The notes below the pieces were generated by a model. That model was given only the letters and a program-made list of their open reading frames with translations, had not been told where the DNA came from and searched no databases. A program made the position numbers and the translations under genes. From positions 365,118,001 through 365,182,000 of the forward strand of contig OZ024740.1 of the NCBI GenBank assembly GCA_964016885.1: DNA of 64,000 nucleotides, in the 5' to 3' direction. Shown here piece by piece: positions 6,887-42,411 of the stretch. The stretch comes from Eledone cirrhosa. Taxonomy: Eukaryota. How positions within the stretch are numbered: the stretch's first letter is position 1; each line of letters begins with the position of its first letter.

Positions 6887-7542
6887 TGTTTCTTATTGGC
6901 AACATGACCCTCCCAAAGTATAACAATATATATATATATATATATATATATATATATATATATATATATATATATATATATATGAATATATATATATATA
7001 TATATATATGAATATATTGTTATATTTGGGGAGGGTCATATTTGCGTAATATTGCCAGAATTAATAACAGAACACACTCACTGTTTGGTTGGTTTTCGCT
7101 TCTCGCTGTCTTTTATATATATATATCTGCGATCTAACTTACTCGGTCCTCAATGTTGCCATTGACTGACCGGCGGTCAAAAATAATACAGATACAATAT
7201 AGACAAACACATATATATATAGTTTACATAAATCTTTCGTTGCACATCTGCAACATCGTCAGTGGTGTTATATTCATTGTTCCTCCTGTTGTGTTGTATG
7301 TCTACGCCATTTTTTTTTTTGTTCAGTCTGTCTATATATTTATTTATTTATTTGCTTGTTTGTTTATCTTATTTTATTTTGTCTTCTTTGCGCATGCGTT
7401 TGCGTGTGTGTATAGTGTTATGTGTGATGTGTGATGTGTGACTAGTGTGTATAGTGTTGTCTGCTGGGTGACTAGTGTGTGTTTATGTGCTTGTGTATGT
7501 ATTTATTTATCTTATTTTATTTAATTTAATTTACTTATTTAT

Positions 7543-9137
7543 TTATACTTCTCTTAGGTCAGTGTTGTTTGTTTGGGTGTTGTTGTTGTTCCACTCATTC
7601 TTTCTGTTTAGCTTTGGTCTTCTAATTTCTATTTCACTGGCCTCTCTGATTTGCCTATCTGCTGGGTCATTCCTATGTTTAGATATTATTCTAATTTCTA
7701 TGTTGTCTATGTTACCGTCATGATGTTGTCTAGCATGTTCGTATAGTACTGACCCGTTTTTTCGTCCTTTTAGTTCCCCCCAGTGTTGGTCTATCCTTTC
7801 ACCTATGCTACGAGCTGTCTCACCTATGTATGTTGTTGTCGTGTTTCTGCAAGTACCCTCTGTACATCTTATGCTATAGACTACGTTTCTAGTTTTACAG
7901 TTTATCCGGGGGTTCACCTTACATATGATACATTTCCTATTGGTACAGTGGGTTTTCTTAAAAGGGTAGGTTTTGCTGATCAGGGATTTTATGGTGGTTC
8001 CTGGCTTTTCTACCACCTTTATTTTTAAGTGGGTCTTTCTCAGGGCCTTTCTACACTGGTTAGCTAATTTCCCTCCAGGGGTGGCGTCCACAAACATGAC
8101 ACTCTGATATCTCTGGTTGTCGTACCATGATGTGGCCTTCCCTATCTTATGTCTAGCCCTATCTAAGCTATTCCATGATTTGCTCCTGTATAGTGGGCAA
8201 ATTCCTTTCATGTCCAGTTCTATGAGGGTCTTATACTTTTCCATGGCTCCTTCGTATACTCTGACTCTGTCTCTTTGGTTGTAGCCAGAGAACTGCATGC
8301 GGTTGATGAAGTGTTGGATGTGTCCTTCCATTTCTGTTGGGTCGCACATGCTGGACACATTCTTCATCACTCGTACCAAATCTGCGATCAGAATATTAAA
8401 CTTAGCACTACTGGACATTGCTGAGTTTTTGAGTATCAGGTATTTGGAGGCCATGGGTTTAGCATAGTGTGAGTGGAGAATTTGGGCTCTCTCGTCTATA
8501 GTGTTAATCCAGAGTTCTGTGTCTAATACAGGTAGTCTATTGTTAGGGTGTTTGGAAGGGAAGTCTATAGTTACAGTTATACTCTGGTGTATGGAATTAG
8601 CTATCTGCTGGATGCTTTCCATCGTGCTACGTTCTAAATCAAACTTGTTAGTGCTCTCTAGTGGGGGTGTTCTTATAACTATATTGATATCGTCTACATA
8701 ACGAGAGTACATGATGAGGTCTATGGAGCTTTCATTAAGGAGATCTTTAAGTCTCCTTTCCCACCATACCATGAAAAGGTTGGCAACATCGCCAGCTATG
8801 CTGACGCCGATGGCTGCTCCCTCATTTTGGGTGTAGATTTTCTCATTGAACTTAAATATGTGGCCCTTTAGGGTAGTTTTGATACTAGCCCCTATTGCAT
8901 GTGCGACCATTTTTCTTACCTGATCAGTGTTTTGGGGGGTCCGTATAGCTTTGGTCCACCCAATCCACCTTCCTATGGGAGTCTTTTTAGCCATTGAGGT
9001 TATGGTGGGGGGTCTACCTCTTATAGGTCTACTAGGGCAGAAACATCTAAGGTCATGGCTGTCTAGGTAGTCAGTGTCGTAGGTAAGTCTAAGTAGGAGG
9101 CCCAGTTCGTCTGTGTCGACGTCGCAGAACTCCACCT
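7543..9137 (-). CDS. 5'-truncated PLE RT-GIY-YIG ORF (left arm)
   Basis: GAAIGVSIAGDVANLFM, YSRYVDD, CTNRKCIIC, VVY...YIGET...R...H; uninterrupted but lacks the N-terminal RT motifs. Confidence 0.85.
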
Positions 9138-9145
9138 CACTCTCA

Positions 9146-10744
9146 ATGAAGGTGGAGTTCTGCGACGTCGACACAGACGAACTGGGCCTCCTACTTAGAC
9201 TTACCTACGACACTGACTACCTAGACAGCCATGACCTTAGATGTTTCTGCCCTAGTAGACCTATAAGAGGTAGACCCCCCACCATAACCTCAATGGCTAA
9301 AAAGACTCCCATAGGAAGGTGGATTGGGTGGACCAAAGCTATACGGACCCCCCAAAACACTGATCAGGTAAGAAAAATGGTCGCACATGCAATAGGGGCT
9401 AGTATCAAAACTACCCTAAAGGGCCACATATTTAAGTTCAATGAGAAAATCTACACCCAAAATGAGGGAGCAGCCATCGGCGTCAGCATAGCTGGCGATG
9501 TTGCCAACCTTTTCATGGTATGGTGGGAAAGGAGACTTAAAGATCTCCTTAATGAAAGCTCCATAGACCTCATCATGTACTCTCGTTATGTAGACGATAT
9601 CAATATAGTTATAAGAACACCCCCACTAGAGAGCACTAACAAGTTTGATTTAGAACGTAGCACGATGGAAAGCATCCAGCAGATAGCTAATTCCATACAC
9701 CAGAGTATAACTGTAACTATAGACTTCCCTTCCAAACACCCTAACAATAGACTACCTGTATTAGACACAGAACTCTGGATTAACACTATAGACGAGAGAG
9801 CCCAAATTCTCCACTCACACTATGCTAAACCCATGGCCTCCAAATACCTGATACTCAAAAACTCAGCAATGTCCAGTAGTGCTAAGTTTAATATTCTGAT
9901 CGCAGATTTGGTACGAGTGATGAAGAATGTGTCCAGCATGTGCGACCCAACAGAAATGGAAGGACACATCCAACACTTCATCAACCGCATGCAGTTCTCT
10001 GGCTACAACCAAAGAGACAGAGTCAGAGTATACGAAGGAGCCATGGAAAAGTATAAGACCCTCATAGAACTGGACATGAAAGGAATTTGCCCACTATACA
10101 GGAGCAAATCATGGAATAGCTTAGATAGGGCTAGACATAAGATAGGGAAGGCCACATCATGGTACGACAACCAGAGATATCAGAGTGTCATGTTTGTGGA
10201 CGCCACCCCTGGAGGGAAATTAGCTAACCAGTGTAGAAAGGCCCTGAGAAAGACCCACTTAAAAATAAAGGTGGTAGAAAAGCCAGGAACCACCATAAAA
10301 TCCCTGATCAGCAAAACCTACCCTTTTAAGAAAACCCACTGTACCAATAGGAAATGTATCATATGTAAGGTGAACCCCCGGATAAACTGTAAAACTAGAA
10401 ACGTAGTCTATAGCATAAGATGTACAGAGGGTACTTGCAGAAACACGACAACAACATACATAGGTGAGACAGCTCGTAGCATAGGTGAAAGGATAGACCA
10501 ACACTGGGGGGAACTAAAAGGACGAAAAAACGGGTCAGTACTATACGAACATGCTAGACAACATCATGACGGTAACATAGACAACATAGAAATTAGAATA
10601 ATATCTAAACATAGGAATGACCCAGCAGATAGGCAAATCAGAGAGGCCAGTGAAATAGAAATTAGAAGACCAAAGCTAAACAGAAAGAATGAGTGGAACA
10701 ACAACAACACCCAAACAAACAACACTGACCTAAGAGAAGTATAA
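9146..10744 (+). CDS. 5'-truncated PLE RT-GIY-YIG ORF (right arm)
   Basis: Mirror of 7543-9137. Confidence 0.85.
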   Translation: MKVEFCDVDTDELGLLLRLTYDTDYLDSHDLRCFCPSRPIRGRPPTITSMAKKTPIGRWIGWTKAIRTPQNTDQVRKMVAHAIGASIKTTLKGHIFKFNEKIYTQNEGAAIGVSIAGDVANLFMVWWERRLKDLLNESSIDLIMYSRYVDDINIVIRTPPLESTNKFDLERSTMESIQQIANSIHQSITVTIDFPSKHPNNRLPVLDTELWINTIDERAQILHSHYAKPMASKYLILKNSAMSSSAKFNILIADLVRVMKNVSSMCDPTEMEGHIQHFINRMQFSGYNQRDRVRVYEGAMEKYKTLIELDMKGICPLYRSKSWNSLDRARHKIGKATSWYDNQRYQSVMFVDATPGGKLANQCRKALRKTHLKIKVVEKPGTTIKSLISKTYPFKKTHCTNRKCIICKVNPRINCKTRNVVYSIRCTEGTCRNTTTTYIGETARSIGERIDQHWGELKGRKNGSVLYEHARQHHDGNIDNIEIRIISKHRNDPADRQIREASEIEIRRPKLNRKNEWNNNNTQTNNTDLREV

Positions 10745-11020
10745 ATAAATAAGTAAATTAAATTAAATAAAATAAGATAAATAAATACATACACAAGCAC
10801 ATAAACACACACTAGTCACCCAGCAGACAACACTATACACACTAGTCACACATCACACATCACACATAACACTATACACACACGCAAACGCATGCGCAAA
10901 GAAGACAAAATAAAATAAGATAAACAAACAAGCAAATAAATAAATAAATATATAGACAGACTGAACAAAAAAAAAAATGGCGTAGACATACAACACAACA
11001 GGAGGAACAATGAATATAAC

Positions 11021-41040: not shown

Positions 41041-41081
41041 TATATATATATATATATATTCATATATATATATATATATAT

Positions 41082-41273
41082 AACGAAGGAAATGTGGTAA
41101 GGAACCAGGTGGACCATAACGCACCAAAGTACTCAATACTTGAGGTAGTAGAGTGGGTAATTGGAACCAGTAAGACCCCGACAGCTGAGCTCAAGCCGTT
41201 TCGACGGCTAATTCTGGACTAGAATTAGCCGTCGAAACGGCTTGAGCTCAGCTGTCGGGGTCTTACTGGTTCC
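41082..41273. repeat. 53-bp-arm hairpin (family H pLTR remnant) plus ~80-nt tail
   Basis: 41163-41215 is the reverse complement of 41221-41273, with loop GGACT. Confidence 0.85.
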
Positions 41274-41372
41274 TATATATATATATATATATATATATAT
41301 ATATATATATATATATATATATATATATATATATATATATAAATATATATATATATATACATATATATTCAT

Positions 41373-42411
41373 ATAATAAAGAATTCATGTCTAGTAACAT
41401 ATATATACATACAGATGCATATCAATGCTAGCAAATATATAGGTTTTGTCTTAATAACGGTGTGGTTCAATGCATGGGGTTGCAGAACAATAATATAAGA
41501 GACGTAAAATAAGAAAATTATAAAATTAACTTACTTACTAATTAGTTTCTGGAATGGAGTAAATATATTTTCCGAAGAATAATATAAAGAAGCATTCCGT
41601 CGTCAGGAAAGTCTATTCTCATGTAAGTTTCCAGGCAAAGCGAGGACACTGGAAACTTATTAAAAAATAATTCAGTGGATAGGAAATAGCGAAGCGTGGA
41701 CTGAATTCCAAGCCATTGATAAAATCACTGCCTCTACGTCTGTGGCAAATTCAAAAAGAATCGAACACGTGACATCGAGGTCAATCAGTGGAAAGTGGTT
41801 TGCTAATAAGACAGCGGCCTGCCTACAACCGTAGCAGCAGTCATGGCCAATATTGCTCGACAAATAATTTGGAGATAATAATAAAGAATTCATATCTAGT
41901 AACATATATATACATACAGATGCATATCAATGCTAGCAAATATATAGGTTTTGTCTTAATAACAGTGTGGTTCAATGCATGGGGTTGCAGAACAATAATA
42001 TAAGAGACGTAAAATAAGAAAATTATAAAATTAACTTACTTACTAAAATATCACTTCCAACTAATTAGTTTCTGGAATGGAGTAAATATATTTTCCGAAG
42101 ATTGACCTCGATGTCACGTGTTCGATTCTTTTTGAATTTGCCACAGACGTAGAGGAAGTGATTTTATCAATGGTTTGGAATTCAGTCCACGCTTCGCTAT
42201 TTCCTATCCACTGAATTATTTTTTAATAAGTTTCCAGTGTCCTCGCTTTGCCTGGAAACTTACATGAGAATAGACTTTCCTGACGACGGAATGCTTCTTT
42301 ATATTATTCTTCGGAAAATATATTTACTCCATTCCAGAAACTAATTAGTTGGAAGTGATATTTTAGTAAGTAAGTTAATTTTATAATTTTCTTATTTTAC
42401 GTCTCTTATAT
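41373..42411. repeat. non-coding ~505-520-nt tandem unit (1.4 copies) plus inverted arm (family I)
   Basis: 41381 recurs at 41886; 42101-42411 is the reverse complement of about 41493-41786. Confidence 0.8.

Follow-up and report, generated by a model that had tools for sequence, protein, structure and literature searches.

Copies of Penelope-like elements (PLEs) are described by Craig et al. 2021 (PMC8557442) as accompanied by an inverted 5′-truncated copy, with a 30–40-bp tail often at one end only and with targeting to (TA)n, the latter in Hydra and Naiad; how the tandem and inverted structures and the one-sided tail are formed is called open there (here and below, the cited papers are represented by excerpts). 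The same source and PMC3846280 record partial tandems (pseudo-long terminal repeats, pLTRs), a tail made of the first codons of the open reading frame (ORF), and 8–10-bp target duplications. A partial answer was given by Frangieh et al. 2024 (PMC11167929) for PAc, a Poseidon element of Anolis: in vitro, two internal start sites of the reverse transcriptase (RT) bracket the tail, and both strands of an AT-rich target are nicked and extended. No difference in start site was seen between the strands, the start is called non-homologous to the target, a dimer is predicted, a hammerhead lies upstream, and ordinary second-strand synthesis is outlined. In the excerpts of PMC8557442 and PMC11167929, neither paper assigns one start site to each strand; a curation guide, also represented by an excerpt, repeats the description of PLE architecture. 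We found no published account of PLE twin priming or of the pairing of ends reported here, subscription papers lying outside the search. The locus that we analysed is a 64,000-nt stretch of the Eledone cirrhosa genome (assembly GCA_964016885.1, contig OZ024740.1, positions 365,118,001 to 365,182,000), hereafter the window, in which a nest of PLEs with (TA)n arrays between them occupies 1.9–44 kb.

An initial annotation, made from the letters of the window alone, had noticed that insertions of eight families (B to I) follow a two-arm rule. We call an arm either of the two inverted 3′ fragments of an insertion, S the short end site and T the tailed (long) end; numbers preceded by L denote other genomic loci fetched for comparison. 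The arms that it listed stand head to head with their 3′ ends outward, one halting at S and the other traversing the tail to T. The listed arms were all found at their coordinates, as were the five recurring S ends of family C (2547, 6926, 15000, 28260, 36470). We consider it probable, judging from the sequence patterns described below, that these structures arise by twin priming, in which each of the two nicked target strands primes at its own site, S or T, on RNA of one source copy. The architecture itself is largely known; the strict pairing of its ends sharpens the mechanism.

Genome-wide end points and pairing of short and tailed ends

Anchors, counted by exact pattern searches of the genome, numbered 25,420 for family C, 10,692 for H, 3,941 for F, 3,638 for B, 3,636 for I, 2,518 for E, 786 for D, and 287 for G. 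Among those of family C, 10,332 run exactly into the tail and 11,265 into (AT)n; a reversed-pattern control gave 0 matches. The genome-wide distribution of 3′ ends is thus bimodal, as the initial annotation had anticipated. Among 191 arms in the initial 44 Mb of C1, judged by coordinates only, neighbours at most 4 kb apart were divergent in 45 cases and convergent in 3, and 40 of the 45 divergent ones combined S with T.

Divergent pairs were then inspected at the sequence level: all 48 family C pairs within 10 kb in the 44-Mb list together with three further C pairs and, chosen blind to end class, 22 of 23 pairs in D and 24 of 25 in E. Nine of the 97, in which one arm reads on into the next tandem unit, were dropped, leaving 88. 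The end points in the fetched loci are nucleotide-exact. Arms of family C end at +6 (51 arms), at +66 (45) or near +66 (2), or read on (4); those of D end at +5 (19), at +177/178 (20) or elsewhere (2), or read on (3); those of E end at +4..7 (23) or +44/46 (23), or read on (2). Head-to-head pairs with two true ends combine S and T in 84 of 88 cases (C 43/47, D 19/19, E 22/22). The remaining families, B, F, G, H, and I, sampled as the first 24–30 loci of each, gave 38 of 39 (I 6/6), bringing the figure for all eight families to 122/127. Tail-less ends are therefore almost always paired with tailed ends in inverted orientation, as had been proposed. If two free RNAs each took a site at random, half of the pairs would be S+T, which this count rules out.

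The rule extends to more complex copies. Insertions interrupted by tandem units have S and T as their outer ends in all six traceable cases (L119, L126, L130, L136, L139, L148), and in family H an opposite arm lies beside every non-tandem arm (27/27). One B insertion (L171–L175) is built of 4,147-bp tandem units that repeat the anchor four times, and an inverted arm closes the series; its outer ends are still S on one side and T on the other, and the tandem fits a concatemeric or circular RNA template.

End sites and their match to the target

Read-through copies were found for B (L172), C (L016), D (L036), E (L072), G (L313), H (L250), and I (L273), and none for F among 30 loci; both ends are therefore internal to the RNA. 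In the read-through copies the partial tandems that form pLTRs reach into the ORF start. The S and T sites are AU-alternating patches 39–173 nt apart, located at the ORF start in B and C. Tails measure 39 nt in E, 57 or 44 in B, 60 in C, 80 in H, ~115 in I, ~128 in G, and 173 in D. The B and C tails correspond to ORF codons ~9–28, as in a rotifer PLE whose tail consists of the first ORF codons (PMC3846280). At 12/12 sites in B, C, D, E, H, and I there is a match of 3–7 nt to alternating TA (background chance 0.05–0.13 per site). Both G sites match by 3 nt, and minor end points in B, D, and G likewise fall on AT patches. The initial annotation had placed only the short end on a fixed internal AT site; this holds for the short end, and a TA patch underlies the long end as well.

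The short ends of family E carry a CT doublet that varies from 1 to 31 units and is expanded in 17 of 25 arms, whereas two CT units are kept in 26/26 tailed arms. We read this pattern as slippage that may have occurred at initiation. Simple-repeat stutter was also seen at long ends, as (CT)n in one G copy (L309) and variable (CA)n in F (L209, L211, L226).

One could suppose that the long site serves to prime both arms, or that a single long complementary DNA (cDNA) is made, and that the endonuclease (EN) later cuts the tail-less end at an AT site during resolution of the intermediate. PMC8557442 credits the tail to EN-mediated resolution, and the AT patches at both ends might serve as cut motifs. 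Yet RT start sites in vitro coincide with both genomic ends (PMC11167929), the CT stutter is confined to E short ends, and the C, D, and E pairs show no intermediate ends, which makes later cutting unlikely.

Arm lengths, source copy, and junctions

In 86 pairs (four complex ones were left out of this comparison) the S arm extends further 5′ in 36 and the T arm in 33; in 17 the two reach within 30 nt of each other, compared to 5.8 expected by permutation. When the S arm is longer, each arm has sequence that is missing from the other, and therefore neither is a fold-back copy. The same counts rule out a short arm that always leads, as would be the case with two RTs moving in file on one RNA. 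Some T arms consist of tail only (window 23422 and 28293; L028, L176, L246).

The arms of a pair share their origin. The partner is the nearest arm in 39/62 pairs, 68 of 74 doubleton alleles fall within partner arms (2.1 expected), and polymorphic sites yield 452 shared subfamily alleles versus 71 partner-discordant calls. Within-pair divergence shows no trend with spacer length (rho 0.15, p 0.25, n=62). In the window, the B arms have 0 mismatches in 2121 nt, and the D arms differ at 1 of 882 positions.

Fold-back or self-priming, by which the cDNA or an antisense RNA copies itself and stops at the short AT site, would suit the palindromic centres of B and H, the excess of near-equal arms, and the shared alleles, and self-priming has been proposed in PMC3846280. 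A copy, though, cannot exceed its template, and the tail-less arm is the longer one in the 36 pairs mentioned above even though only the other arm is tailed; the tail-only T arms speak against it as well. Fold-back as the main route is excluded by the strict S/T pairing, by the source common to both arms, and by the fact that either arm can be the longer one. It is refuted as the sole route, some near-equal pairs may have arisen by it, and as a general explanation we find it very unlikely.

Of 91 junction 36-mers (six complex pairs were left out), 87 are absent from the other pairs in the sample, and the remaining four resemble boundary errors inside the element's own palindromes. The junction 31-mer of the B insertion in the window is single-copy in the genome. 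Within the sample, junctions are thus new in each insertion. Two-armed insertions might instead be inherited, if transcripts of whole inverted insertions were put back by a single ordinary priming event. Alleles would then be shared and ends fixed, and H junctions do cluster at 72–80 nt; but almost no sampled junction recurs, H centres differ base by base, and inheritance is highly improbable.

One duplication around both arms

An F pair located in non-array DNA (L219) is flanked by an exact 16-nt duplication, and duplication-type matches of 13–19 nt surround pairs of B, C, D, and I inserted into interrupted arrays. A single duplication around both arms means that they derive from one insertion event, and it would imply staggered nicks leaving 3′ overhangs. 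Construction of the (TA)n arrays by the RT was also considered. In C and D, arrays next to S ends do not differ in length from those next to T ends (n=62, p 0.13), both flanks share the same interruptions, and an F pair lies outside arrays; no empty-site allele was seen, so array-building by the RT is unsupported rather than excluded.

Restriction site-associated DNA sequencing (RAD-seq) of two other samples gives loose ends for a natural H copy at S (2,907 and 2,596) and at T (7,398 and 8,047), followed by (AT)n, and reads of the same two samples contain opposite-strand joints for this family. The H ends and strand-switch joints are no assembly artefact. The expectation that raw reads span the inversions is thus borne out for H; the centre of the B insertion in the window was left unbridged by Logan contigs of four runs, which is uninformative either way. 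Separate one-armed insertions into one array, homogenised later by gene conversion, or assembly chimeras would agree with the dense nested cluster and the 100% identity of the B arms, but carry hardly any weight given that arms are joined directly without (TA)n, within one duplication, with S paired to T, and that both H ends and the joints recur in raw reads of other samples.

Family H and its 5′ wall

Arms of family H stop at most 32 nt upstream of the anchor in 27/30 cases, and none stops between 33 and 200 nt. This wall is an initiator-like A located 26 nt behind a TATA-like box, and RAD-seq depth falls ~40-fold at it. Most H insertions thus likely used that copy of the S and T sites which lies nearer the 5′ end, both cDNAs running off the transcript at this predicted start. 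Most H copies (L231–L260) are tiny hairpins with arms of ~60 and ~140 nt. They resemble miniature inverted-repeat transposable elements or microRNA (miRNA) precursors, yet are PLE products; a sub-threshold Rfam match to mir-127 falls at window 41162–41272.

Proposed two-site priming of both target strands

The strict S/T pairing, the single duplication, the shared source, and the fact that either arm may be longer therefore favour two-site, both-strand priming. According to this model, the RT-endonuclease would nick both (TA)n strands ~14 nt apart, and each 3′ end would prime its own cDNA at one of the two fixed sites. The (TA)n overhang may base-pair with the AU patch, much as telomerase aligns its primer, while an asymmetric complex would assign the short site to one strand and the long site to the other. 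The two cDNAs would stop independently or at the RNA 5′ end, to be joined end to end and then filled in; a second end that failed to contact the RNA would leave a one-armed copy. We lean towards a single RNA that is copied twice, with strand displacement, rather than a pair of RNAs transcribed from the same locus. The initial annotation had proposed that each RNA has two programmed sites and that both nicked strands are extended; the proposal is supported, and it is less new than it seemed, as its in vitro part is known (PMC11167929).

Several points weigh against two-site priming as set out here. The case for these families is built on sequence. Among the 127 pairs there are five exceptions (2 T+T, 3 S+S), and some pairs are segmental duplicates (L185/187, L219/223, L121), which slightly inflates n. 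One-armed copies form a sizeable minority: 5 of 17 scoreable C insertions (first 30 loci) have no partner arm, and such copies are also present in B, D, E, and F, so that the claim of two arms in each insertion stands for most insertions rather than for all. The duplication test gave seven exact matches compared to 0.42 in shuffled pairs (102 pairs), uncontrolled for periodic array interruptions and with two of the seven being one tandem duplicate. The 71 discordant calls would fit two RNAs or later deletions, and gene conversion between inverted arms could have contributed to the likeness of partners. Head-to-head joints between different families were observed at window 6886–6900 and in L060, L209, and L212; they may stem from the use of two distinct RNAs in a single event or from later deletion. 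The (CT)n at E short ends could have grown by DNA slippage instead, and the prediction of the H start site comes solely from motifs.

More tentatively, and with somewhat less than even confidence, we suggest that EN+ PLEs of several clades may use programmed twin priming, the inverted one-tailed structure being their normal product. An asymmetric RT-EN dimer would hold one RNA and nick (TA)n leaving ~14-nt 3′ overhangs, and each subunit would pair the primer to its own AU patch, telomerase-style, with occasional stutter. If base-paired priming of two strands is true, PLE RTs would be linked functionally to their telomerase relatives. The mechanism would also account for the inverted repeats, perfect or nearly so, that number in the tens of thousands in this 3-Gb genome.

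Proteins, clades, and ribozymes

Pfam identified RVT_1 (1e-7) and GIY-YIG (8e-6) in the E protein, RVT_1 (0.012) and GIY-YIG (0.002) in the C protein, both below the cut-off, and RVT_1 (0.001) in the B protein; it gave no relevant match for the D and H proteins, whose motifs were found by eye. Among 123 listed relatives of the C protein, the closest named ones carry the label Octopus vulgaris (69%, with 92% of the query covered), and no relative of it was found in the PDB. Family D has an open frame of 808 aa in L139. The Hydra clade is characterised by RWK, DKT, and CxCX5C motifs together with (TA)n insertion (PMC8557442). The corresponding motifs are RVRWK, DKT, and CNCHLPDRC in D, and RLRWR, DKT, and CNCPDRSIC in H; G is represented by a 240-aa piece similar to a Hydra-type ORF. 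With respect to Neptune/Nematis motifs (a CX2-5CxxC linker preceding GIY-YIG, and DKG), E has DKG and CGRTNCGTC, and C has DKSG and CIDKKCITC. D and H thus appear Hydra-type and E Neptune-like, with B and C unplaced without a tree; the S/T rule spans at least two clades, probably three. No ORF was found in F or I, which would be PLE-mobilised and apparently non-coding. Of the eight PLE families named by the initial annotation, B, C, D, E, G, and H stand as such, and F and I join them through their presumed mobilisation.

Rfam returned no hammerhead, just sub-threshold miRNA matches on palindromes and microsatellites. Descriptor scans predicted hammerhead core-like motifs in B, E, I, and F, and none by script in C, D, and H. 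One C ORF (L107:2332-4080) has a long Asn/Thr/His-rich insert before the RT, resembling the N-rich inserts of rotifer PLEs (PMC3846280).

Composition of the nest

Arms and related features of the window are collected in Table 1. Two tails that had been measured from the window alone are refined by comparison with other copies: the 46-nt B tail is present and reaches a minor long end, the major one lying 13 nt further, and the G arm reported to reach 23516 is a T arm truncated inside its ~128-nt tail.

Table 1. Arms and related PLE features in the window
Feature	Position	Strand	Remarks
Family B S arm	7014..9149	-	Ends CAATAT, then (TA)n; 5′ end ~10 nt beyond partner's
Family B T arm	9152..11318	+	RT + GIY-YIG-type ORF 9083-10744; S site 11273; tail reaches minor long end
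Family D (Hydra-type) S arm	11337..12421	-	5′ end ~190 nt beyond partner's
Family D T arm	12422..13476	+	S site 13303; 173-nt tail
Family E (Neptune-like) S arm	13700..13965	-	Additional (CT)n units at short end, ~13700-13715
Family E T arm	13961..14300	+	39-nt tail
Family F T arm	14631..14854	-	Hammerhead-like core at 14794
Family F S arm	14865..14947	+	S end 14947
Family G S arm	23238..23420	-	Ends ...AATTTAT
Family G T arm	23422..23518	+	Solely last ~95 nt of tail
Family C partial-tandem copies	24591..27872	+	Finish in T end
Family C micro-insertion (50 nt)	28258..28307	.	~33-nt S arm (-) fused to last ~14 nt of tail (+)
Family C S arm, 2 kb	36468..38465	-	RT + GIY-YIG-type ORF 36865-38463
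Family C T arm	38483..38712	+	S site 38648; 165 nt + 60-nt tail (ORF codons ~9-28)
Second family F insertion, S arm	39693..40114	-	Approximate 5′ boundary
Second family F insertion, T arm	40592..41040	+	Approximate 5′ boundary
Family H (Hydra-type) T arm	41082..41218	-	80-nt tail; stops at H 5′ wall
Family H S arm	41220..41276	+	S end ~41273
Family I T arm	41373..42101	-	522-nt non-coding tandem unit, partial tandem; hammerhead-like core at 41606
Family I S arm	42092..42411	+	S end 42411

Nearly all (TA)n arrays of the nest (1911–44161) share one GA/TC interruption; up to 19.4 kb it mostly points one way, and from 27.9 kb the other, with local flips; other loci have other interruptions. The nest likely grew from a single ancestral array. 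At 3845–6929 a 3-kb minus-strand arm of another PLE family, A, with a canonical minimal hammerhead core recognised by eye, directly abuts a 40-nt short arm of family C in head-to-head orientation, with no (TA)n in between. Additional elements occupy 16968–22110, 23582–24591, 28400–30888, 32360–35800, and 44153–46174; they include two Hydra-like ORFs, the end of a further non-coding PLE, another copy of family A, a PLE ORF in which RVT_1 and GIY-YIG are matched, a Neptune-like copy of almost full length, and a tandem of 617 bp that reaches an assembly gap. Beyond the nest, 60564–64000 contains reverse transcriptase fragments of a long interspersed nuclear element (RVT_1 4e-10), which we take to be RTE-type, and numerous short interspersed repeat copies.

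Comparison with known systems

In the twin priming of L1, associated with Ostertag and Kazazian, both target strands reportedly prime cDNA, and a 5′ inversion within one duplication results. There the second site is variable and lies upstream, and the arms do not overlap; here the sites are fixed, with 39–173 nt between them, and one stretch of sequence is copied into both arms. The process would work like twin priming, but its structure is not that of L1. The twin-priming-like reaction suggested by the initial annotation is apt in that both strands would prime, and differs from L1 in that both arms copy the same RNA stretch.

The inverted copy and the one-sided tail are as described in PMC8557442 and PMC3846280. 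Compared to the excerpts of those papers, tails are 39–173 nt long, S/T pairing holds in 122/127 pairs, duplications measure 13–19 nt, and fold-back is excluded by arm lengths. PAc (PMC11167929) differs in the use of its sites: in Eledone each insertion would use one site per strand, and both sites match (TA)n by 3–7 nt. Priming on telomeric overhangs is described for the EN-minus Athena/Coprina elements (PMC8557442). Telomerase and these elements share with the present families the short primer-template pairing to a repeat and a possible reiterative slippage, seen here as (CT)n at E short ends; the target here, though, is an internal (TA)n presumably opened by a GIY-YIG nuclease, and repeat addition would be incidental. 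Non-LTR retrozymes (bioRxiv 10.64898/2026.07.22.740005) were compared with family I, which is alike in its non-coding tandem unit and hammerhead-like core; family I obeys the S/T rule in 6/6 pairs, and the terms tail, priming, and initiation are absent from the text of that preprint. Relative to this literature, the new features are the near-obligate S/T pairing, the 3–7-nt TA matches, a single source for both arms, either of which may be the longer, a 13–19-nt duplication, and tails of up to 173 nt.

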